This document shows, piece by piece, positions 3,611-14,317 of a stretch of DNA of 64,000 nucleotides. The stretch's first letter is position 1, and every line of letters begins with the position of its first letter. A program made the position numbers and the translations under genes. The stretch is from assembly GCA_963718285.1 (NCBI GenBank), contig CAVQYU010000004.1, positions 86,838 to 150,837 on the forward strand, in the 5' to 3' direction. The stretch comes from an uncultured Chloroflexia bacterium (GTDB taxonomy: Bacteria > Chloroflexota > Limnocylindria > Limnocylindrales > CSP1-4). The notes below the pieces were generated by a model. It worked only from the letters and a program-made list of their open reading frames with translations. It did not search any database and had not been told where the DNA came from.

Positions 3611-5235
3611 ATGGATTGGGCGGACGAGCTGGCCGCCTCGGTCGACGGGACCGCAGGTCGTCAACGACAGCAAGACACCATCGGGCACCGTCCACGTGGG
3701 CAGCCTGCGCGGGCCGGTGATCCTCGACGTGATCGCCCGGGCCCTGCGCGCCCGCGGGCACCGAGACGAGCCTGCTGCTACGGGATCGACGACCTCGATC
3801 CGATGGACGCCCAGGCGCTCCTGACGCCGGATGCCGTCGAGCACGAGATGGGCCGGCCGCTGGCCCACGTGCCCGACCAGGCCGGCGACTGCCACGCCTC
3901 GTACGCCCGCCACCACGCCCAGACGTTCATCGACACGTTCGCCGGCCTCGGCATCCAGCCCGATCGCTACTACTGGATGAGCGAGCTGTACGCCGCCGGC
4001 ACGGTCGACCCGTACATCCGGATCGCGCTCGACCGGGCCGAGGCCGTCCGGGCGATCTACCTGCGCGTCGCCAAGGTCCAGCATCCGGCCGACTGGCACC
4101 CGATCCAGGTCGATCTGCGAGAACTGCGGCCGGATCGGCACCACGATCGTGACGCGACTGGGACGGCCAGCGGATCTACTACGAATGCCGGCCGAACCTC
4201 GTCACCTGGGCCACGGGCTGCGGCCACAGCCGGCTGGGTCGAGCCGTTCGGCGGCCGGGCCAAGCTCGGCTGGAACCTCGAGTGGGCCGCCCAGTGGAGC
4301 ATCTTCGGGGTGACGATCGAGCCGTGCGGCAAGGACCTCGCCACGGCCGGCGGCTCGCGCGACCGGGCCGACGCGATCGCCCGCGAGATCTTCGAGCGCG
4401 AGCCGCCGCTCAACGTGCCGTACGAGTTCCTGAACATCGGCGGCCGCAAGATGTCGACCTCCAAGGGCCTCGGCGTCGCGGCCCACGAGATCGTCCGAGG
4501 TCGTCCCGCCCGAGCAGCTCCGCCTGCTCTTCCTGCGTCCGCGGCCGCAGACCGCGATCGAGTTCGACCCGGTCGGCACGGACGCGATCCCGCGCCTGTT
4601 CGACGAGTTCGACCGGCTGGCCGACGCGACGGCCGGGCGGCCCGTCCGGGGCGAGCTGCCGGCCGGCCACGAGAGCGTCTTCCGCTACTCGCTGCTCGAT
4701 CCGGCCGCCGACGTGGCGGCCGTCGCCGCGGCGTTCCGGCCGGCCTTCGGCCACCTGGCGCTCCTCCGCCAGATCCCGGGGGTCGACATCGACGCCCGGA
4801 TCGAGGCCGAGAAGGGCGGCCCGCTGACCGCCGGCCGAGGCGGCCACCTTGCGCGAGCGGATCGCCGCCGCCGATGCCTGGCTCGAGGCGTTTGCGCCCG
4901 GACAAGGTCGCGGATCGCGGTCCGCCGCGACGGCCTGCCCGACGAGGCCGCCGCGCTGGAGCGCGGACCAGCGGGCGTGGCTCGGCGGCCTGGCCGAGGC
5001 GGTCGCCGGCGGCCCGCCGGTCCGGCGTCCGGCGATGCCTGGCAGGCCCTGATCTTCTCGACCGCGACCGAGCGCCGGGCTGCCCCCCGGCGGGCCTTCG
5101 CGCGCGCTCTACCTGGCCTTCCTCGGGCCGCCCGAACGGGCCCCGGGCCGGCTGGCTGCTGGCCAGCCTCGAACCCGCCTTCGTGCAGGAGCGGCTGCGG
5201 GCCGCCGCGGCCGGAGCCGGCCGTGCAGGAGCCGC
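3611..5235 (+). CDS. lysK: Class I lysyl-tRNA synthetase (LysK-type); several apparent frameshifts; end approximate
   Basis: MDWADELA...[34 protein letters not shown] (HIGH-like motif) and [15 protein letters not shown] (KMSKS), distributed over 3 frames. C-terminal ...[21 protein letters not shown]. Confidence 0.75.
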
Positions 5236-6593
5236 ATGAGCGTCGGCCTGCAGCGCCTGCGCGACGATGCGCCGATGCGATCCGCCAGGGCGCGATCGAC
5301 AAGGGCGAGGACCCGGCGATCGTCGATGCGGCCCTGGCCGCCGACGCCCGCCGCCGGGAGCTGCTGGCCGAGGGCGACCGCCTCAAGGCCGAGCGCAACA
5401 CGGCGTCGAAGGCGATCGGCGAGGCGATCCGGGCCGGGGCCGACCCGACGGGCCCGAGACGCGCGGCCCTGCGGGCCCACTCGACCGCGGCCGGCGAGCG
5501 GATCGCGGCGATCGACGCCGAGCTGGCCGACGGTCGAGGCGAGCGTCGAGGACCTCCTCCTGCGGATCCCCAACCCGGCCGACCCCGACATCCCGGTCGG
5601 CGGCGAAGAGGCGAACGTCACGATCCGGGAGTGGGGCGAGCAGCTGCCCGGCGTCCAGCCGCTGAGCGGCGAGGTCGGCGCCGACGCCCCGCCCGGCGGC
5701 CCGAGCTGGGAGCGCCGGCCGCACTGGGAGGTCGGCGCCGGCCTCGGGATCTTCGATCTCGAGCGCGGCGCGAAGATCGCCGGCTCGGGCTTCCCCGTCT
5801 ATCGCGGCCTCGGGCTCGGCCCTCCAGCGCGCGCCTGATCAGCTGGTTCCTCGACGTCCACACCCGCGAGAACGGCTTCACCGAGATCTGGCCGCCGGCG
5901 GTGGTCAACGCCGCATCGGCCCGGGGCACCGGCCAGATCCCGGACAAGGAAGACCAGATGTACGTCGTCGGCCGCGACGACCTGTACCTCGTGCCGACGG
6001 CCGAGGTCCCGGTCACGAACCTCCACCGCGACGAGATCTTCGAGGCGTCCGAGCTGCCCGTCCGCTACGCGGCCTACTCGCCCTGCTTCCGGCGCGAGGC
6101 CGGCGCCGCCGGCAAGGACACCCGGGGGATCCTCCGCGTCCACCAGTTCGACAAGGTCGAGATGGTCCTCTTCGAGCGGCCCGAGGCGAGCCGCGGCGGC
6201 CCTCGAATGGATGACCGGGCGGGCCGAGGACCTCCTCCAGCGCCTCGGCCTGGCCTATCGGGTGCTGCTCATGGCCACCCGCGAGATGGGCTTCACCCAG
6301 GGCCGCAAGTACGACATCGAGGTCTGGGCGCCCGGCGTGGAGCGCTGGCTCGAGGTCAGCTCGTGCTCGAACTTCCGCGACTACCAGGCCCGCCGGATGG
6401 CCGTCCGCTACCGGCCCGAGCCCGGCGCCAAGCCCGAGCTCGTGCACACCCTCAACGGCTCGGGCCTGGCCCTGCCGCGGGTCGTCGCGGCGATCCTCGA
6501 GACGTTCCAGAACCCCGACGGCATCGGTGGCCGTGCCCGAGGTGCCTGCGGCCGTATCTCGGCCAGGCGGCGGAGCTTCGCCCGCCGGCCTGA
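5236..6593 (+). CDS. serS: Seryl-tRNA synthetase; several apparent frameshifts
   Basis: [19 protein letters not shown]...; [18 protein letters not shown]...[34 protein letters not shown]...[40 protein letters not shown] (class II motifs), read across 3 frames. Confidence 0.8.
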
Positions 6594-6614
6594 TCGCGCT
6601 ATCCTCGGGCCGCC

Positions 6615-6704
6615 GGAGAGGTGGCAGAGCGGTCGAATGCGGCGGTCTTGAAAACCGCAGAGGGTGCAAGCCTTCCCTGGGTTCGAATCCCAGCCTCTCC
6701 GCCA
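6615..6704 (+). tRNA. tRNA-Ser(UGA), type II with long variable arm, CCA encoded
   Basis: ggagaggtggcagagcggtcgaatgcggcggtcTTGAaaaccgc...gggttcgaatcccagcctctccgcca. Anticodon loop cuUGAaa. Confidence 0.85.
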
Positions 6705-7072
6705 GCCTGGCCGGCGCGTCGCTGTTGATCCTGGTGGGACAAAGCCGCCATTTCGCGTGCGGCCCACGCCGCGCGCCAGTCGGTACATCGTCAATTCATC
6801 CCGGCCCACGCTTGGCTCGGGATCGAATCCGGGCTATGAGTGCGCGGACGCCTGCTCGAACGGCGCGAAACCCTCGATTTGTCCCATCGAGATCAACATC
6901 GATACGACGCCGGCCCCGTCGCCGGGTCTGTGGCCCGGCCCCGCCTCCCACCGGGTGCCGCGGCCCCGGTACTTCCGGCGGCCCACCCTAGTACGATCAG
7001 TGAGCGCCGCGCCATACCCGGATGTGCCCTCCGAGCTGGTGCGCGACGAGTCAGGAAGCAGAGGGTCTGACC

Positions 7073-7777
7073 ATGCGAAGACTGATCGCCAGCACACTCG
7101 GTGCGCTCCTGCTCGTGGCCCTGATGGTGGCGCCCACCATGGCCCACACGGCCTCCGCCACCTGCGATCACATCACCCTGGGCAAGGTGCCCAACGGGGT
7201 CTCGGCCACGCTGACGCCGGGTCCGATCGTGATCAGCCCGCCCAACAAGACGACGTCGATCAACGGCACCTACGAAGTGCCTCCAGCCACCTACCAGATC
7301 GTCTTCTCCGACGGCTCGATCATTCACAGGATCACCGTCCCGTCCTGCCCGTCGCCGAGCCCGAGCACCTCACCCACGCCGACGCCAACGAGCAGCGCGA
7401 CGCCGAGCCCGTCCCCGGTCCCCAGTCCAAGCCCCTCGGGTGGTGGCCCGAGCCCGACGCCCAGTGCCAGCCCAACGCCCAGCAGCTCACCTAGCCCGAC
7501 GCCGAGCAGCTCACCCAGTGCCACGCCGTCCCCCAGCTCGGTCGTGACTCCGACTCCGCCGCCAACGCCCACCCCGACACCATCGTCGGGTCAGGTCCAG
7601 GGCGCGACAGCGACACCGAGGCCAACCGTCCCCGCGACCGACACGCTGGCCGACTCAGGCAGCGACGGGCTGTCGGCGGGCCTGCCGATCTTCCTCTTCC
7701 TGCTCATCGGGATCAACGTCAGCCTGACCCTGCTCCTGCGCACCCAGGGCCAGCCGGGTCGTCGCCGCCGGGGCTGA
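7073..7777 (+). CDS. Secreted Pro/Thr/Ser-rich surface protein with a C-terminal sorting-signal-like anchor (candidate sortase substrate)
   Basis: Signal peptide MRRLIASTLGALLLVALMVAPTMA, a small globular region, a ~100-aa (S/T/P)n linker, then ...TLADSGSDGLSAGLPIFLFLLIGINVSLTLLLRTQGQPGRRRRG* (hydrophobic helix plus basic tail). Confidence 0.55.
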   Translation: MRRLIASTLGALLLVALMVAPTMAHTASATCDHITLGKVPNGVSATLTPGPIVISPPNKTTSINGTYEVPPATYQIVFSDGSIIHRITVPSCPSPSPSTSPTPTPTSSATPSPSPVPSPSPSGGGPSPTPSASPTPSSSPSPTPSSSPSATPSPSSVVTPTPPPTPTPTPSSGQVQGATATPRPTVPATDTLADSGSDGLSAGLPIFLFLLIGINVSLTLLLRTQGQPGRRRRG

Positions 7778-7869: not shown

Positions 7870-8076
7870 TTAGACGCTATGCCCGACGTTGCTGAGGATC
7901 TTGGAAACCTGTCCGCCCAGGAAGATCAGGGCGATGATGGCGACGATCGCGATGAGGGCGAGGATGAGTGCGTATTCAGCGAGACCCTGACCAGCGGTCA
8001 GGAAGCGCCGGGTGCGCAATACAGCGGTAAGCGTCTCCGAAGAGATGCTGCTGTACCAGGAATACAGTCGAGTCAC
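7870..8076 (-). CDS. flp: Flp/Fap-family type IVb pilin (Tad pilus major pilin)
   Basis: 68 aa VTRLYSWYSSISSETLTAVLRTRRFLTAGQGLAEYALILALIAIVAIIALIFLGGQ... with the G/AEY processing motif. GTG start at 8076 with a perfect SD (AAGGAGGTGA) 5 nt upstream. Confidence 0.75.
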   Translation of the reverse strand: MTRLYSWYSSISSETLTAVLRTRRFLTAGQGLAEYALILALIAIVAIIALIFLGGQVSKILSNVGHSV

Positions 8077-8550
8077 GTTTTCACCTCCTTTCTTTCGGAT
8101 TTCGGAACATAGTACGTGCCGCCGTTAGGCTACTTGAGCCGTCTTTCGGGGGTCAACAGTACCGATGGCGTACTGGGTACGGCCCGCTCCTTCAGGAATG
8201 AGTCAGGAAGCTGCTAGACACTCCCGGCCTGTGCCGCTCGTGTGCTCACAGCCGCCAGATCCGCACCGCCCGCGGCTCGGTCTACTGGCTGTGCCAGCTG
8301 TCAACGATCGACCCGCGTTTCCCGCGCTACCCGGCCCTCCCGGTCCGAACCTGCTCTGGCTTCGAGCCATCCATCGGCCGGGTCCGGCCGGCGCCCGGGC
8401 CGACCCCCTCGAGGCCGAGCCTGGGTCGGAGCGGCACTGATTCGCCGGGCCCATTAGGCTTGAGTCCCGGGCCCACCAGGCCTGGCCTACGGAAGTCGGC
8501 CAGCAGACTGGGCCGGCACCAGACGCCACCCTCGACCACGGAGTCCGACC

Positions 8551-9185
8551 ATGACCGAGCAGCCGTCCTTCGAGCGCGAAGAGGACATCGTCGATGGCGA
8601 TGCCGCGACGCACCTCGAAGCCCTTGGCTTCGGCGCGGTCGTGCCGGCCCCCCAGGTCGCCCGCAGCGAGGGGCTCCCGCTCGAGCTCGTCGGCCAGCAC
8701 CTGCGCCTGTCGGGCACGGTCAACATCGGCTTCCACAATCGGCTGTCCGACTTCATGAACAACAACGACGGCCTGATCCACCTTCGCGACGTCACCGTGC
8801 TCCGGCGCAACGGTGATCCGACCAAGGTCACCTCCCCGGCATCTGGGTGAACCCCGAAGAGGTGACCCTGATCGGCGAGCTGTCCGACGTCGACGAGCCG
8901 GCCACCGGCAGTCACGAGTACCGGGAGAAGAAGGCCTTCTACCTGATCGTCGTCACCCCCGGTCACACCCTGACCGGCGCGATCCACCTGAACCCGCAGG
9001 CGGTCCTGTCGGCCTTCATCGAATCGCGCGATCCGATGTGGATTCCGATGACCGACGTACGCACCCGATCGCTGGCCGACCGGCGGGTGATCTCCCGCTA
9101 CGCCTTCACCGTAATCAATAGACGCCACATCGTGGCGGCTACCGAGCTGGCGCCCGGCCTCATCCGCGGGAAAGGCGTGCTGTAG
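8551..9185 (+). CDS. Hypothetical protein of unknown function; apparent frameshift near 8835
   Basis: ORF 8551-8850 and ORF 8847-9185 are adjacent in different frames and both protein-like (RLSGTVNIGFHNRLSDFMNNNDGLIHLRDVTVL / KKAFYLIVVTPGHTLTGAIHLNPQAVLSAFIESRDPMWIPMTDVRT). No family recognised. Confidence 0.45.
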
Positions 9186-9288
9186 GCGCTGCGGTGCGCA
9201 CTGGCAACGGGTGGTTAGCCGGGTCTGGACGAAACCGGGTGAGTCTGGAGTACGCTCCGCGTCCGGGCTAGGTGCATAGCGAGCGAAC

Positions 9289-10769
9289 ATGGCCAAGATG
9301 CGTGGATTCCTGAAGTCAAAACCGAAGATTGACGACGCCGAGTGGGCGCTTGCCCAATCCCGAACCGCAGAACGGCTGGCGGGCCTGTTCAACGATGCCA
9401 CCGAGGACGAGGCTGAACCCGCGGTCTCGCCACAGGCCGAGGCAGAGGCGTCGGGCGAGGTCGTAGCCGTGGGCAACGCGGGTGCCGAGCGGCCGCCGAT
9501 CGTGGTCGTCGGCGCGGGCCCCCTCGACCCGGGCCTGCCTGAGCTCGCCGAGAGCGAACCGGTCGCCCAGAAGGAGCCCGAGCCGGTGGCCGCGAACGAG
9601 CCCGAGCCGGTGGCCCAGCTCGTGACCGAGCCAGTGCCGGTCGCCGAGGTCGGGCCCGCTGTTGAGGTCGAGCCGGTAGGAGTGATGGCCGAGCCCGAGG
9701 ATCGATTCGACGAGAACGGCTGGCAGCTGCCCGCTCGATCGCCCGATGTCAAACCGGCCGGCCTCCCCCGGACCGCCCGGTCGGCCGCGACTGCGGGCAA
9801 GACCTCGGGCAAGACCTCGGGCAAGACCGCCGCCCAGGCCCCCGCCAGGAGCACCCACCAGGCCGGCGCATCGAAGCCGCGCCAGTCCGGCGCAGCCAGC
9901 CAGACCGCCAAACCTGCCCGTCCCAAGGCAACGGTCGCCGGCAGCCGCCCGCCGGTGCCTCCTGTCCACGCCAGCAAGCCCCGGGCCAAGCGCAAGGCCG
10001 CGGCCAAGGCGATGCCGGCCGCGGTCGCCCACTGCCCGTACTGCGCGCTCCTGCTCGAACCGCCCCGACCGCCAGCCGGCGCTGCGAGCGGTGCCGGCAG
10101 CGGATCATGGTCAAGCGGGTCGACGGCCGCGCGGTCTACCTTACCGAGGCCGCCGTGGCCGTCTTCGACGCAGAGCGCAAGCGCATCGCCAGCGGCGCCC
10201 GGCTCGGCGCGCGAGCGAGATCGCTGGCTGCAGCCTGGCAGCGTCCGCCCATGCGCCCGAGAACCGCCACGCCCAGCTGAGCGCGGCCCGGCTGTCCGAG
10301 GAGACCGTCGCCGCCTCGAAGGCGCTCTATTTCGGTGCCGTCGATCGGGCGTTCCGGGCGGCGCGGAAGGCCAAGGACTGGGATGCGGCGGCTCGGCTCC
10401 GGCGTGACCAGGCGGCCGCCCTGTTCCGTGCCGCCGAGGGATCGTCCAAGCCGCCGTCGCCGGAGGTGGTTGCGCTGTTTCGCGAGGGGGTGGCCTCCGA
10501 GCTCCGAGGGATCGCGGAGATCAGTCGCGATGCCGAGCTCGTGGCGGCGTCCTGCTGCGACGCCTGCCGGGCCGACGACCACCGGATCTTCAAGATCAGC
10601 ACGCGAGCTCCGCCAGCCGCGCCTGCCCCATGCCGCATGCCCCAAGGGACTCTGCCGCTGCCATTGGGACCTTGCCGCGCGCGACCGCACGATGATGCGC
10701 CGCTACCTGCGCCGCCGGCCGGCGGGCGAAGCCCGGCCCGGCGCCGTCGAGGTTGGCACGCCGGCCTGA
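9289..10769 (+). CDS. Hypothetical protein, paralog A: acidic/Pro-rich low-complexity N-region, double CxxC zinc-ribbon, C-terminal Cys-cluster domain; at least 2 apparent frameshifts
   Basis: CPYCALLLEPPRP...CERCRQRIMVKRVDGRAVYLTEAAVAVFDAERKRI ... ALYFGAVDRAFRAARKAKDWDAAARLRRDQAAALF...LFREGVASELRGIAEISRDAELVAASCCDACRADDHRIFKI...RLPHAACPKGLCRCHW, spread over 3 frames. Confidence 0.5.
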
Positions 10770-11683
10770 TCTCGGCGCGCTCTCGCGGTACGCTCGGCTG
10801 CCCCGGTCGAACGGCGGCCGCCAGCAGAGGTGGTCGATCTCGTTCCTGCGCAGGCTCCTGGGCTTGGACCGCTCCGAGCGCGACCGCCTTCCGCCGGTCG
10901 AGCCCGAACCGGTCGTGCCCGAGGTGGCGAGCCCGTTGCCCGCGCCCGTACCCGTCAGCGTTGCCTGCCCGAACTGCGGGGTGATCCTCGATCCGCCGCC
11001 GACCAGCAGCCGGCTCTGCCCGCGCTGCCGGCGCCGGATCGTCGTCCGCCATTCCGACGGGCCGGGCGATCTACCTGACCGAGGCCGCCGTCGAGGTCTT
11101 CGAGGCCGAGCGCCAGCGCGAGATCGACGAGCAGACCTGGACGCGCCAGCGGCGGACCTGGCTGCAGCTGGCCCGGCTCGTTGGCAGCGCCGGCCGATCG
11201 CCGCCAGAGCCTGGCCGCGGCTCCCCTCAGCGTGCCGCCGTCGAGGCCTCGGCCCAGGCCCTCTACCTGAGCGCCGCCGAGCGGGCCGCTCGGGCGGCCC
11301 GGCGGGAGAAGCGCTGGGAGGACGTCGCCCGCATCCGCCAACGCCAGGCCGCGGCCCTGTACGAAGACGCCGGATCCCCGCTGCCGCCGCCGGACCACGT
11401 CCTGGCCCTCTATCGCGAGGGTGTGACCGCCACGCTGCGCGGGCTGGCCAACCTGGCTCGCGAAGTGGAGCTCGTCGGGGCGAGCTGTTGCGCGGCCTGC
11501 CGGGCGGACAACGAGCGGATCTTCAGGATCGCCGCCGAGCTCAAGGTCGCCCGCCTGCCCCATCCGGACTGTCCCCGCGGCCTGTGCGCCTGCGACTGGT
11601 GGCCGGCCGTGCGCAAGCCGCCGCCACGGAAGCGCAGACCGCCCGGCGCGCGCCGGTTGACGCCGTCGCGGCGGCCCGTCTAG
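10753..11683 (+). CDS. Hypothetical protein, paralog B of 9289-10769 (same zinc-ribbon plus Cys-cluster architecture); 1 apparent frameshift
   Basis: CPNCGVILDPPPTSSRLCPRCRRRIVVRHSDGRAIYLTEAAVEVFEAERQRE ... ALYLSAAERAARAARREKRWEDVARIRQRQAAALY...LYREGVTATLRGLANLAREVELVGASCCAACRADNERIFRIAAELKVARLPHPDCPRGLCACDWW. Collinear with paralog A. Confidence 0.5.
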
Positions 11684-11712
11684 ACTCGCCGCCACATCAC
11701 GAATAACGGGCG

Positions 11713-11790
11713 ATGATCGGGACGAGTACCCGTCGCGCGTCGGCACAGAGACCCGGTGGCTGGTGGAAACCGGGGCGACGGCGGTGGTGA
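11713..11790 (+). promoter_or_regulatory. Candidate trp operon leader peptide (25 aa) with tandem Trp codons
   Basis: atg atc ggg acg agt acc cgt cgc gcg tcg gca cag aga ccc ggt ggc TGG TGG aaa ccg ggg cga cgg cgg TGG tga = MIGTSTRRASAQRPGGWWKPGRRRW*. Lies between paralog B and trpE. Confidence 0.5.
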
Positions 11791-12027
11791 ATGGACCCGG
11801 GAGCCTCCGGACCGAACGGCGAGCTCGACGGGCTCACCCAGTAGGCTCCGGCGCAGAGCGCCAGCGATAGAGGGCAGCGCCGATCGAACCCAGAGGTGGC
11901 CAGGCCACCCGGCTCCGTCGGTCAGAGTGCGGCAGATTGCCGAAGGCGGGTGGTACCGCGGAAGGTTCGACCTTTCGTCCCTGGGACGAGAGGTCGTATT
12001 GATTCCCGAGGAGGCTTCGCCGCCACG

Positions 12028-13627
12028 ATGAGCATCACGGATCCGCTCAGCCTGACCGAGGCGAAGCGCCTCGCGGGGGGCGCCGACACCGTGCTCCTGC
12101 GGGCGACGCGGGACGCCGACCTGGAGACGCCGATCGGCGCGTTCCTGCGCCTCGACGATGGCGGCCCGGCCTACCTGCTCGAATCGGTCGAGGGAGGCGA
12201 GCGGCTCGGTCGCTACAGCTTCCTGGGCATCGGCCCGCGCCGTCTGCTCGAGGTCCGCGGCGACCGGGCGACGATCCAGGCACGGCCCTTGAGCGTCGAT
12301 CGGTTCGAGCCGGACCTGCCGGTCGACGACGCTCGAGTCGATCGACCCGCTCAGCACGCTGCGGGCGTTCCTGCCCCGCCGGCGGGTCCTGCCCCTCGAG
12401 GGCATGCCCCGGTTCACCGGGGGTGCCGTGGGGGCCCTGGCCTATGACGCCGTCAGCGCGTTCGAGCCGAGCGTGCCCCAGCCGGCCGGCGATCCGGTCG
12501 GCGTGCCCCACGCCGCGTTCATCGAGTCGGACCTGGTCATCGTCTTCGACCACCTGACCCACACGATCAGCGCGATCGCCTCGCTGCACACCGAGGTGCC
12601 CGACCTGGACGGCCGCTACCGGATCGCCGAACGGGCGATCTTCGAGGCGCTCGACCGGACATCCGGCCGTCGGCCTCCGAGATGGCCGGGACGGCGGCGG
12701 GGCCGGCTGGCCGGACCGCGGCTGCCGAGCGGTGGGCCCGCCGGGTCGCGACCTCGATCGAGGCAACGGCGACGAGCCTCGGGCGGGACCAGTACATCCA
12801 CGCCGTCGAGGTGGCCAAGGACGCGATCGCGGCCGGCGAGGCGATCCAGGTCGTGCTGGCCCGGCGCCAGTCGTTCGAGCTGCCACCCGGCGCCGACGGG
12901 CGACCGGTCGACGGCATCGGCCTGTATCGCGCCCTGCGCCGGGTGAACCCCAGCCCGTACCTGTTCTTCATCCGGACGCCGGCCTTCGAGGTCGTCGGCG
13001 CGAGTCCCGAGCTGCTCCTCCAGGTCGAGGGCGACCGCGCTGACCACCCATCCGATCGCAGGCACCCGACCACGGGGCGCGACGGCTGCGGAGGACGACC
13101 TGCGCAGCGAGGAGCTCCAGCGCGACCCGAAGGAGAAGGCCGAGCACGTGATGCTGGTCGACCTCGGCCGGAACGACCTGGGCCGGGTCGCCCGGGCGGG
13201 CACGGTCCGGGTGACCAAGTACATGGAGGTCGAGCGCTACAGCCACGTCCTGCACCTGGTCAGCCACGTCGAGGCCCGCCTCCGGCCGGACCTGGACGCG
13301 CTCGACGCGCTGCGCTCGGTCTTCCCGGCCGGAACCCTGTCCGGGGCGCCCAAGGTCCGGGCGATGCAGCTGATCGCCGCCGCGGAGAACGAGCGCCGGG
13401 GACTGTACGGCGGAGCGGTCGGCTACCTCGGCTACGACGGCAACCTCGACACCGCGATCACGATCCGGAGCGCCGTCCTGCGCGACGGGATCGCCCACGT
13501 CCATACCGGAGCGGGGATCGTCGCCGGCTCGGTGCCCGAGCGCGAGTTCGAGGAGACCGAGCACAAGGCGGCCGCCCTGCGCCGGGCGATCGAGCTGGCC
13601 GGTGGCGGGCCGGAGCGGCTGCGATGA
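12028..13627 (+). CDS. trpE: Anthranilate synthase component I; multiple apparent frameshifts
   Basis: [69 protein letters not shown]...; later frames ...[16 protein letters not shown]..., ...[26 protein letters not shown]..., ...[45 protein letters not shown]...[15 protein letters not shown]... Confidence 0.85.
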
Positions 13628-14317
13628 TCCTGGTCGTCGACAACTACGACTCGTTCACGTTCAACCTGGTCCAGGCCCTGGAGGCCGCCGGCGCCGAGGT
13701 TCGGGTCGTCCGCAACGACGCCATCGATCGGGCCGGGATCGAGGCCCTGGCGGCCGATCCGGCCAGCGACCTGCGCGGGATCGTGATCTCGCCCGGGCCG
13801 GGCGACCCGTCGGCCGCCGGCGTCTCGGTCGAAGCCATCCAGGTCGCGGCCGCGCACGCGATCCCGCTGCTCGGCGTCTGCCTCGGGATGCAGTCGATGG
13901 CGGTCGCCTACGGTGGCACGATCGTGCGCGCGCCGACCCTCGTCCACGGCGAGGCGTCCGAGGTGAGCCACGACGGGCCGGGCCTGCTCCGGGCTGCCGC
14001 CCTCGTTCATGGCCGCCCGCTACCACTCCCTGGCCGTGGATCCGGGGGCGATCCCGGCCGAGCTCCTGGTCACCGCGATCTGCGAGGAGGACGGCGTGGT
14101 CATGGGCCTCCGCCATGTGACCCTGCCCCTCGAAGGCGTCCAGTTCCATCCCGAGTCGGTCCTGACGCCCGAGGGGCCGCACCTCCTGGCCAACTTCCTG
14201 CGCCGGGCGGGCGAGGGCGAGGCCAGCCGGCTCGACGCGGTCAGCGGCAGCTTCGCGACCGGCGGCATGGCCGAGCCGCTCGACCGGGACGGCGGTCCGA
14301 TCGGGTCGAGCCGATGA
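13624..14317 (+). CDS. trpG: Anthranilate synthase component II (glutamine amidotransferase); apparent frameshift
   Basis: [35 protein letters not shown]...[10 protein letters not shown]...[24 protein letters not shown]...; C-terminal part ...[61 protein letters not shown] in another frame. ATGA overlap with the trpE stop. Confidence 0.8.

Follow-up and report, generated by a model that had tools for sequence, protein, structure and literature searches.

An ancient pair of orphan paralogs with a predicted zinc ribbon, linked to a DUF6812 gene in Limnocylindria (Chloroflexota)

Two neighboring genes, A and B, in the 64,000-nt stretch of DNA analyzed here (the window) raise the question of what kind of protein they encode and with which partner it works. 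Both are located on the forward strand and both are interrupted by frame breaks, four in A (at 10064, ~10207, 10231 and 10604) and five in B (at ~10837, 11059, ~11189, 11233 and 11649), so that the need for correction recognized in an earlier, sequence-only reading was confirmed. Nine breaks within the 2.4 kb of the pair, at 73–76% GC where spurious long ORFs are common, could indicate decaying pseudogenes or a noisy high-GC assembly artefact. However, the adjacent genes serS (seven frame breaks per 1.35 kb) and trpE (three per 1.6 kb) are equally broken, which implies window-wide assembly noise rather than pseudogenization. Moreover, the corrected core of A is ~75% identical to ortholog P0121 and corrected B is ~90% identical to P0001, and both products retain all of the invariant residues when compared with intact orthologs on other contigs. 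The pseudogene or artefact explanation is refuted for practical purposes: A and B are intact genes, and their frame breaks are assembly errors. Gene A occupies positions 9289–10769 (~494 aa after correction of its four indels), as originally delimited. Gene B was previously placed at 10753–11683, but the N-terminus of its homologs and the C-terminus of P0001 assign it to 10830–11706 (~291 aa after correction of its five indels). It starts with a GTG at 10830, immediately followed by a 1-nt indel, and its homologs begin with M-V-x-I-x-F-L-R-R-L-L-G; the stop at 11683 lies downstream of the indel near 11649, and the true C-terminus, ...PVDAVAAARLDSPPHHE followed by a stop, agrees with P0001. With these limits for B, the two genes do not overlap.

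The frame-corrected products share 52% identity across 223 aa (BLASTP, E 1e-59), in agreement with the proposal that the two adjacent same-strand genes are divergent tandem paralogs of collinear architecture. Homology searches identified 264 homologs for B and 266 for A, together with 79 loci in species-representative genomes of GTDB, of which all but one carry a Chloroflexota label; of 1.84 billion cluster representatives, only 694 matched at E<=1e-3. All relatives with taxon-bearing source names belong to Chloroflexota or Ca. Limnocylindrales, and no relatives were detected on 2.9 million viral contigs (IMG/VR). Core identity was 0.68 within the A-type, 0.73 within the B-type and 0.53 between the types, and the nearest neighbor was of the same type for 89 out of 89 sequences. 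A-type and B-type proteins form separate clades, and the duplication is therefore old; all nine genomes that were sampled twice carried both paralogs. To date, the orphan family to which these ancient paralogs belong has been encountered exclusively in MAGs of Limnocylindria, a class of Chloroflexota. Ten long or odd members of the family contain no Pfam domain, their extra length being disordered spacer.

The two proteins share a common plan: both begin with a FLRRLLG-like peptide, continue through a disordered spacer and a core with a constant length of 208 aa, and end in a basic tail. The core consists of one C4 zinc ribbon, an Arg-rich five-helix bundle and a CCxxC...PHxxCPxGLCxC cluster. 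The sequence-only reading had described a double zinc ribbon with CPxC-N14-C spacing, and eight conserved Cys residues plus a His. The N-terminal motif is instead CPxC-x13-CxxC, a single C4 ribbon; the His was recovered, whereas the number of Cys residues that are invariant across 89 A- and B-type sequences is ten (four in the ribbon and six in the cluster). R106, W109, W160 and R167 are invariant as well. The shared motifs are preserved after indel correction and represent invariant columns of a family with several hundred members. In the AF2 model of ortholog P0003 (mean pLDDT 84; 95–99 over the ribbon and the helical bundle), the four invariant ribbon ligands C45, C48, C62 and C65 (P0003 numbering) are surrounded by strands with pLDDT of 95–98, and the modeled motif corresponds to the generic C4 zinc-ribbon fold class, which is defined by two CxxC knuckles on beta-hairpins at a spacing of 10–20 residues. 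The same model places strands at residues 68–74 and 77–82 and helices at 83–115, 120–128, 133–156, 160–177 and 186–206.

In gene B, the N-terminal peptide M-V-x-I-S-F-L-R-R-L-L-G-L (10830–10866, + strand, as are all features of the pair) is predicted to form a helix at residues 2–9. In 93 B-type proteins, FLRRLLG or a close variant lies within the 60 N-terminal residues, and a peptide of this type is still present in the most divergent lineages. It is followed by a Pro-rich disordered linker (10867–10965) that varies in sequence among homologs; the B-type spacer comprises ~40 aa, and the linker of P0003 has pLDDT of 56–61 at residues 11–30, rising to as much as 79 at residues 31–40 beside the ribbon. 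Next come the C4 ribbon CPNC...x13...CPRC (10966–11028), the beta-hairpin and Arg-rich five-helix bundle (11029–11485, from the AF2 model of P0003), and the Cys6-His cluster CCAACRADNERIFRIAAELKVARLPHPDCPRGLCAC (11486–11593), which has pLDDT of 71–84 in a model computed without metal. The protein ends with DWWPAV and a basic tail (RKPPPRKRR...) with a variable end (11594–11706; median tail charge +3).

In gene A, the conserved N-terminal peptide MAKMRGFLKSKPKIDDAEWALAQSRTAERLAGLF (9289–9390; consensus MpkMRGfLrsrPKI.DEaEwaLAqSRtAARLA.lF in 98 A-type proteins) precedes a disordered spacer (9391–10032) that is acidic and Pro-rich, then Lys/Ala-rich. The low-complexity N-region of A, originally estimated at ~200 aa, is real, comprises ~245 aa and recurs as a conserved feature in the A-type orthologs, in which the N-terminal peptide and spacer together span 156–524 aa. 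Conservation within this region is concentrated in residues 1–34 and in two spacer islands, RPPIVVVG (9490–9513) and EPVGVMAEPEDRFDENGWQLP (9670–9732; EPVGVMA.P.D...W.LP). The C4 ribbon CPYC...x13...CERC (10033–10094), whose four Cys are invariant, is broken by the indel at 10064. It is followed by the beta-hairpin (RIMVKRVDGRAVYLTE) and Arg-rich five-helix bundle (10101–10549), homologous to P0003 residues 66–213, by the Cys6-His cluster CCDACRADDHRIFKIS.ELRQPRLPHAACPKGLCRC (10553–10661), in which C, C, C, P, H, C, C and C are invariant in 70 non-redundant fragments, and by a basic C-terminal segment, HWDLAARDRTMMRRYLRRRP... (10662–10769), which is specific to the A-type and conserved among its orthologs.

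Searches against Pfam, NCBIfam, PHROGs, PADLOC, PDB sequences, PDB structures (Foldseek) and BFVD revealed no significant match to a characterized family, consistent with the earlier failure to assign either protein, and no resemblance to a known enzyme was seen. The family is real and new, and its members are for now conserved hypothetical proteins. Several specific identities were rejected. A SWIM zinc finger (PF04434, CxCxnCxH) differs in ligand order from the CCxxC...HxxC....CxC found here and yielded no Pfam match at E<=10; the SWIM match in BFVD had E 0.25 and probability 0.25. Neither the HxxxCxxC motif of ZAS proteins nor the four-Cys pattern of WhiB occurs in the alignment, and neither family matched in Pfam. 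RpoP/Rpb12 (NF001605) scored 20.1 bits with B and 12.2 bits with A against a curated cutoff of 63. The top whole-chain Foldseek matches (AKMT, 14-3-3, FKBP TPR and SMYD2) share an antiparallel helical bundle with A and B, as do TPR, 14-3-3 and SMYD scaffolds in general, but these matches are not real (E >= 0.1, TM 0.1–0.25): A and B lack a repeat signature, TPR_7 reached only E 0.93, and TPR membership has neither motif nor profile support.

Derivation from a phage, as a MuF/SPP1 gp7-like module, or an identity as a defense or mobile element was considered because by eye CxxC-R-x-D-x-x-R-I-F...P-H...C-R-C resembles gp7 R-x-x-H-R-x-L-D-G-K-I-I...C-R-C: the spacing of metal-ligand-like residues is loosely similar, with a D-G-x-I-F-like stretch ending in CRC. 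PF04233 (Phage_Mu_F) was also the only Pfam family recurring on C-terminal fragments (4 of 70, best E 0.21). Nevertheless, the sampled MuF members carry RxxH where A and B carry CxxC, and hhalign gave a probability of <1% against a 12-sequence MuF alignment (gp7 plus 11 varied MuF domains taken from phage records) and of 0.3% against gp7 alone. PADLOC returned zero matches, PHROGs nothing better than E 0.1 to a family of unknown function, and BFVD no fold match; together with IMG/VR, all of these searches were negative for a phage gene or defense system. A and B lack phage context, their surroundings are those of the core genome, with genes such as serS and trpE, and we regard this origin as highly improbable.

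The neighborhood provides the only functional lead for A and B. The pair had been described as lying between a flp pilin and the trp leader; the trp leader is a T-box match, and the pair does not directly adjoin flp, as a DUF6812 (PF20660) gene intervenes (8551–9185, + strand). This gene, missed in the sequence-only reading, matches PF20660 in two stretches (50.5 bits, E 2e-13; gathering threshold 27.1), and contains one assembly indel near 8840; once a single frame correction is made, it shares 90% identity with P0377. Its product is acidic (pI ~5.6) and consists of two internal ~75-aa repeats that align to each other, and all 58 of the homologs scanned match PF20660. All-vs-all ORF clustering at 83 loci showed that DUF6812 is the only recurrent neighbor of A and B; no other neighbor is conserved at these loci (the next, an ABC ATPase, was found at 14), no sigma factor gene was among the recurrent neighbors, and trp and serS neighbors are confined to close relatives. 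Of 46 B genes in species-representative genomes, 31 have DUF6812 within 1.8 kb, so that the linkage extends to about two thirds of species, and the gene order takes several forms. About a third of B genes and most A genes have no adjacent DUF6812, and divergent family members are solitary. The top 50 Foldseek-PDB matches of the DUF6812 model are all Sm, LSm or SmAP proteins (probability 0.57–1.00, >=0.9 in 45 of the 50; TMt 0.35–0.66; E 0.02–0.3), although the model itself is poor (pLDDT 48.7). A profile of the DUF6812 repeat found no Sm chain among PDB sequences, and no LSM or Hfq Pfam match was obtained at E<=10. The annotation of DUF6812 as a putative Sm-like protein is provisional.

We tentatively propose, as a possible reading that we hold well short of probable, that A and B are non-enzymatic, zinc-stabilized RNA- or DNA-binding adaptors that work with the Sm-like DUF6812 protein. 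Each would carry a short conserved amphipathic N-terminal peptide on a flexible spacer, and the single C4 ribbon would pack on the Arg-rich five-helix bundle to form a rigid 208-aa core. The strongly basic cores (~33 Arg, net charge +9 to +13, pI 9.4–9.7) and tails may bind nucleic acid, with RNA favored. High-GC genomes are Arg-rich in any case, which counts against this explanation. In this scheme, A and B would act in a lineage-specific ribonucleoprotein or chaperone-type complex that includes the acidic DUF6812 protein with its putative tandem Sm-like domains, and the tethered peptide (FLRRLLG in B, MRGFLKSK... in A) would dock them to either the Sm-like protein or the membrane. As a test of docking, co-variation of the N-terminal motif with DUF6812 subtype counts against this proposal, since it amounts to a weak trend at most, with LLG degraded beside a divergent DUF6812 group. 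In archaea, lsm genes commonly adjoin, and are co-transcribed with, the gene of the zinc-ribbon RNA-binding protein L37e (PMC10221803). That arrangement pairs an Sm-fold gene with a small basic zinc-ribbon protein, much as DUF6812 (Sm-like by Foldseek) is paired here with A and B; however, A and B are not homologs of L37e, DUF6812 has a tandem two-domain structure whose Sm-like assignment is provisional, and the present organisms are bacteria.

Alternatively, A and B could be DNA-binding nucleoid-associated proteins or transcription factors, including RNA-polymerase-associated factors with an RpoP/Rpb12-like ribbon, in which case DUF6812 would be a mere neighbor. Rpb12, RpoP and RPA12 ribbons, LysW and ZifS share with A and B a CPxC-x13-CxxC motif followed by a beta-hairpin and were the best, sub-threshold, sequence matches; the Rpb12/RPA12/RpoP ribbons represent the sole sequence similarities (NCBIfam E 4e-4; PDB sequences E 0.04–0.06, Rpb12 at 0.06), and the only domain-sized Foldseek match of the model was LysW (3vpb_E, TMt 0.52 over 46 columns). 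A basic core and tail also favor this explanation, as does the occurrence of two paralogs in each twice-sampled genome, a situation shared with many nucleoid proteins. Nevertheless, the likeness spans ~35 of the 208 core residues, and the proteins concerned lack the helical bundle, the Cys6-His cluster, the N-terminal peptide and the basic tail. The scores remain far under the cutoff (20 vs 63 bits) and concern ~30 residues of generic fold, A and B lack an HTH or other DNA-reading domain, RNAP and sigma genes are not linked to them, and the conservation of the DUF6812 linkage in several gene orders argues against the mere-neighbor view. We consider this explanation quite unlikely.

The Cys6-His cluster is probably the site of one or two additional metal ions, for which structural zinc is the simplest candidate, and from its residues it could equally be the holder of an Fe-S cluster. 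The earlier suggestion of a nucleic-acid or redox role remains a plausible hypothesis, and we lean toward nucleic acid because of the Arg-rich basic core and the putative Sm-like partner. As a redox or metal sensor, CCxxC...HxxC....CxC would hold an Fe-S cluster or form a thiol–zinc switch whose state controls partner binding, as it does in WhiB or ZAS anti-sigma proteins. Seven invariant potential ligands within 40 residues, including vicinal CC and a CP motif, and the drop of AF2 confidence at the cluster when it is modeled without cofactor are consistent with such a sensor. On the other hand, the motifs and Pfam matches of WhiB and ZAS are absent, the adjacent genes include neither a sigma factor nor an Fe-S assembly gene, the neighborhood is of housekeeping character, and no feature sets the cluster apart from structural zinc, which leaves a sensor role improbable.

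The N-terminal peptide could alternatively act at the inner membrane face. MinD and Noc attach to the membrane through amphipathic helices at one end of the protein, and a peptide of this type would anchor A and B while the spacer holds the basic zinc module and its bound DNA, RNA or DUF6812, contributing to nucleoid or cell-envelope organization. FLRRLLG of B matches five of the seven positions of FLKRLFG in the C-terminal GFLKRLFGG of E. coli MinD (NC_000913), and A begins with MRGFLKSK. Both the MinD and the B motifs are terminal, followed by Gly and carried on a flexible linker, which is Pro-rich in B, where the motif is predicted to be helical. However, the MinD motif is located at the C-terminus of an ATPase and FLRRLLG at the N-terminus; its hydrophobic moment of 0.41 is ordinary (the background has a median of 0.29, and its 95th percentile lies at 0.63), and no membrane-related gene linkage was found around A and B. 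The residues F-L-R-R-L-L-G are also conserved more strictly, over deep divergence, than is usual for a generic membrane helix, which points to a specific protein partner. We judge the membrane-tethered scaffold to be rather unlikely. Within the adaptor reading, the most elaborate version is unlikely as well: a class-specific machine in three parts, in which an acidic tandem-Sm ring of DUF6812 would carry two zinc-clamped Arg-rich adaptors of new fold, docked by FLRRLLG-type helices, and organize RNA, possibly at the membrane. If true, it would represent a bacterial counterpart of Sm/Hfq-based ribonucleoprotein assemblies with unrelated partner proteins.

Limnocylindria are abundant in soils and lakes, uncultured, and almost unstudied at the molecular level. 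The pair and its strongly conserved partner have been retained throughout the part of the class that has been sampled, and a confident predicted structure matches no solved fold; they therefore offer a concrete entry point to lineage-specific cell biology. Many such conserved hypothetical proteins exist in poorly studied phyla, and the surprise is accordingly moderate. Even if its function proves mundane, the combination of zinc ribbon, five-helix bundle and Cys6-His cluster merits a database entry of its own. If the Sm-like link is true, these genes would point to a bacterial RNA-handling assembly built differently from Hfq, and the annotation of DUF6812 could be upgraded to Sm-like once confirmed.

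Gene B, as corrected against its orthologs, occupies 10830-11706 on the plus strand, downstream of gene A (9289-10769). The sequence-only reading had placed both genes on one strand, and its interval for A is retained, whereas its overlap between A and B is not. Homologs of B share the N-terminus M-V-x-I-x-F-L-R-R-L-L-G; in the window, B starts with a GTG at 10830, a base is missing directly after it, and the true C-terminus, ...PVDAVAAARLDSPPHHE, with its stop at 11704-11706, is accessible only once the last indel is corrected. With these ends, B does not overlap A. Frame breaks had rightly been reported in both genes: six-frame translation shows the A product switching frame four times, and frameshift-aware alignment to the closest orthologs placed the breaks at 10064, ~10207, 10231 and 10604. 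Those of B lie at ~10837, 11059, ~11189, 11233 and 11649. In the corrected products, x stands for a residue at an indel (LLLEPxPTA in A, which runs from MAKMRGF to VEVGTPA; MVxISFLRR at the start of B). The corrected A core is ~75% identical to the A-type ortholog P0121, and corrected B is ~90% identical to the B-type ortholog P0001.

Single-base indels occur in all window genes examined (within 5150-6750, 8500-9250, 9250-11760 and 11850-13800). Frameshift-aware alignment revealed seven in 1.35 kb of serS and three in 1.6 kb of trpE, and the upstream DUF6812 gene contains one; including A and B, the spacing is ~200-600 nt. The indels often coincide with short G/C runs, and GC content around A and B is 68-76%. 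The presence of indels in serS and trpE leaves a negligible probability that A and B are pseudogenes: their frame breaks are assembly noise and not gene decay. The window has the look of a long-read assembly that has not been polished; every ORF call in it therefore needs frameshift-aware handling. Public MAG entries of the family are affected as well, since an A-type gene that is intact in one contig (L002, 11557-13721; 680 aa called, 721-aa ORF) is split into two ORFs in a near-identical contig from a different sample (L003, 11557-13722). A 506-aa ORF at 8487-10007 on the minus strand, antisense to the DUF6812 gene and A, is almost certainly spurious, an effect of high GC; at related loci, similar antisense ORFs recur only as shadows of real genes.

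A and B are two intact, ancient paralogs. The tandem divergent paralogy proposed earlier is borne out by 52% identity over 223 residues (E 1e-59) between the corrected products. In an alignment of 89 sequences, the nearest neighbor of every sequence was of the same type, and core identity was 68% within A-type, 73% within B-type and 53% between types, indicating that the duplication is older than the sampled radiation. Two separate loci were found in nine genomes of a survey that took one genome from each GTDB species; those checked carry one A-type and one B-type gene each (e.g., L030/L056 and L035/L067). The 264 matches to B (57-85% identity) and 266 to A are all unnamed or 'hypothetical', none carries a precomputed Pfam domain, and wherever the source name gives a taxon it is Candidatus Limnocylindrales. 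This survey yielded 79 family loci, all labelled Chloroflexota of some kind except for one, on a contig assigned to a Sulfotelmatobacter bin. Among 1.84 billion cluster representatives, searched exhaustively by HMM, only 694 proteins matched at E<=1e-3, 163 of them at E<=1e-30. Within the data searched, the family is restricted to a single bacterial class that has been little studied.

The columns invariant across both types, in the numbering of the B-type ortholog P0003, comprise an N-terminal C45-P46-x-C48...C62-x-x-C65 motif, a C-terminal C217-C218-x-x-C221...L240-P241-H242-x-x-C245-x4-C250-x-C252 cluster, and L81, R106, W109, A154, W160, R167, P183 and L200. The metal-ligand-type residues thus number ten Cys and one His, rather than eight Cys and one His, and the N-terminal motif is one C4 zinc ribbon in place of the double ribbon first described. 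The AlphaFold2 model of P0003, built from the 89-sequence alignment (mean pLDDT 84, pTM 0.73), consists of a short helix (residues 2-9; pLDDT 69 for block 1-10), a Pro-rich disordered linker (11-40; 56-61, up to 79 beside the ribbon), the ribbon with a beta-hairpin and five helices (about 43-206; 95-99), a Cys-rich domain modelled metal-free (about 207-257; 71-84), and a basic disordered tail (from about 258; 47-63). The core is 208 residues long in nearly all members, with ~33 Arg, a net charge of +9 to +13 and a pI of 9.4-9.7. The region preceding the ribbon spans 156-524 aa in A-type proteins versus about 43 aa in B. The low-complexity N-region noted in A is a conserved A-type trait. Conservation within the pre-ribbon region is seen in its first 34 residues, an N-terminal peptide, and in two islands of the disordered spacer that follows (RPPIVV.G and EPVGVMA.PGDD..W.LP). 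A-type proteins also have a basic C-terminal segment of their own, W-D-L-A-x-R-D-R-x-x-x-R-R-Y-L-R-R-R. Both proteins are a rigid, strongly basic, metal-ligand-rich module on a flexible tether with a conserved terminal peptide.

The earlier failure to assign a family was upheld. Pfam gave only sub-threshold ribbon matches (E 0.03-1.5), and NCBIfam only RpoP (20 bits, the cutoff being 63 bits). Sequence-profile searches of the PDB reached no more than the Rpb12/RPA12 ribbons (E 0.04-0.06), and PHROGs and PADLOC gave nothing; a DNA- or RNAP-associated factor is an improbable reading. The Cys-cluster domain alone had zero PDB sequence-profile matches, Foldseek with the confident model found nothing below E 0.1 in PDB or BFVD, and ten unusually long members carry no extra domains. 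No catalytic signature was seen in A or B, and a redox or Fe-S sensor built on the cysteines is slightly less probable than the DNA- or RNAP-associated factor. By eye, the Cys cluster resembles the motif at the C-terminus of phage MuF/SPP1 gp7, but this relationship is rejected: hhalign gave a probability below 1% both against gp7 and against a 12-member MuF alignment assembled from phage records; PF04233 was the only Pfam family recurring on isolated C-terminal fragments (4/70, E>=0.21). A phage origin has negligible probability; no relative was found on 2.9 million viral contigs. Within the reach of these tests, nothing of known function or known fold is related to the family. This and its restriction to one class recommend it for a new family entry and for a small biochemical study; on present evidence it is no surprising biological system. 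The finding itself is real, and its first description was largely right in substance.

That description set A and B between an orphan flp pilin, which lies at 7870-8076 on the minus strand, and the trp leader, and omitted the DUF6812 gene (PF20660, 50.5 bits; 8551-9185, plus strand) between the pilin and A. DUF6812, A and B are spaced by 104 and 61 nt. Common orders among the 79 loci are DUF-B (22), A alone (14) and DUF-A-B (12), with others such as B-DUF-A. Among the 46 B genes with sufficient flanking sequence, DUF6812 lies within 1.8 kb of 31 and A of 23, and clustering of all ORFs in the loci revealed no other recurrent neighbor. The linkage to this acidic (pI 5.6), probably Sm-like protein is conserved, although some divergent members are solitary: the most divergent ones checked (L096, 6001-7044; L097, 6001-6963) lack both DUF6812 and a paralog within 6 kb, and their surroundings are unrelated genes such as nucleotide cyclases, transporters and GGDEF genes. 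DUF6812 is much more conserved than A or B (65-90% identity over the best 120 matches; mean column identity 58%) and comprises two mutually alignable repeats, a ~75-aa unit having been duplicated internally. A second, divergent subgroup (HMM score about 140 versus about 400) adjoins B-type genes in other Limnocylindria lineages; these observations concern the window gene and loci L037, L041, L042, L054, L066, L072 and L073. The AlphaFold2 model of DUF6812 is poor (pLDDT 48.7), with a strand-strand-helix-strand-strand-strand pattern that occurs twice. In Foldseek against PDB, Sm, LSm and archaeal SmAP proteins filled 50 of the 50 top places (probability 0.57-1.00, at least 0.9 in 45; target-normalised TM 0.35-0.66; E 0.02-0.3). 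By eye, each repeat resembles Sm1/Sm2 (...G-x-V...R-L-S-D-F-x-N...L-x-D-V..., then ...V-N-x-x-E-V-T-L-I), while sequence profiles from DUF6812 fail to reach Sm proteins. A tandem Sm-like assignment of DUF6812 is likely but provisional. From composition, linkage and this low-confidence fold match, we tentatively propose that A and B are adaptors in an RNP-type complex. In this proposal, structural zinc would occupy the cysteines, with a single ion in the ribbon plus one or two more in the Cys6His cluster. Nucleic acid would be bound through the basic core and tail, and A, B and DUF6812 would operate as a complex, with the N-terminal peptide possibly docking onto DUF6812. Archaeal lsm genes are widely adjacent to, and co-transcribed with, the gene for the zinc-ribbon RNA-binding protein L37e (PMC10221803), an analogy to the DUF6812-A/B pairing and not a homology.

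The FLRRLLG motif at the B N-terminus is kept even in the most divergent lineages, and the peptide may alternatively be a membrane-targeting helix. The terminal FLKRLFG of E. coli MinD is its membrane anchor, and FLRRLLG matches it at 5/7 positions; a membrane-tethered scaffold, to which this likeness points, is unlikely, and the adaptor reading carries the highest, though still modest, probability.

Upstream, the seryl-tRNA synthetase gene is closely followed by a tRNA-Ser (anticodon TGA; 6615-6704). The plus-strand ORF at 7022-7777 encodes a putatively secreted protein that is rich in Pro, Ser and Thr over a long region and has a hydrophobic segment at its C-terminal end. It adjoins the small, oppositely oriented Flp-type pilin ORF; the few kb inspected showed no further pilus assembly genes. 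Downstream, a T-box leader (RF00230; 11704-11985) directly follows the B stop and precedes trpE, in agreement with the trp leader first described. Its score (63.5 bits, E 2e-12) falls short of the gathering score of 93 bits, probably on account of indels. The 3' end of B contains a sigma-70-like promoter match (11657-11686), and a strong terminator-like hairpin lies at 11968-11996.
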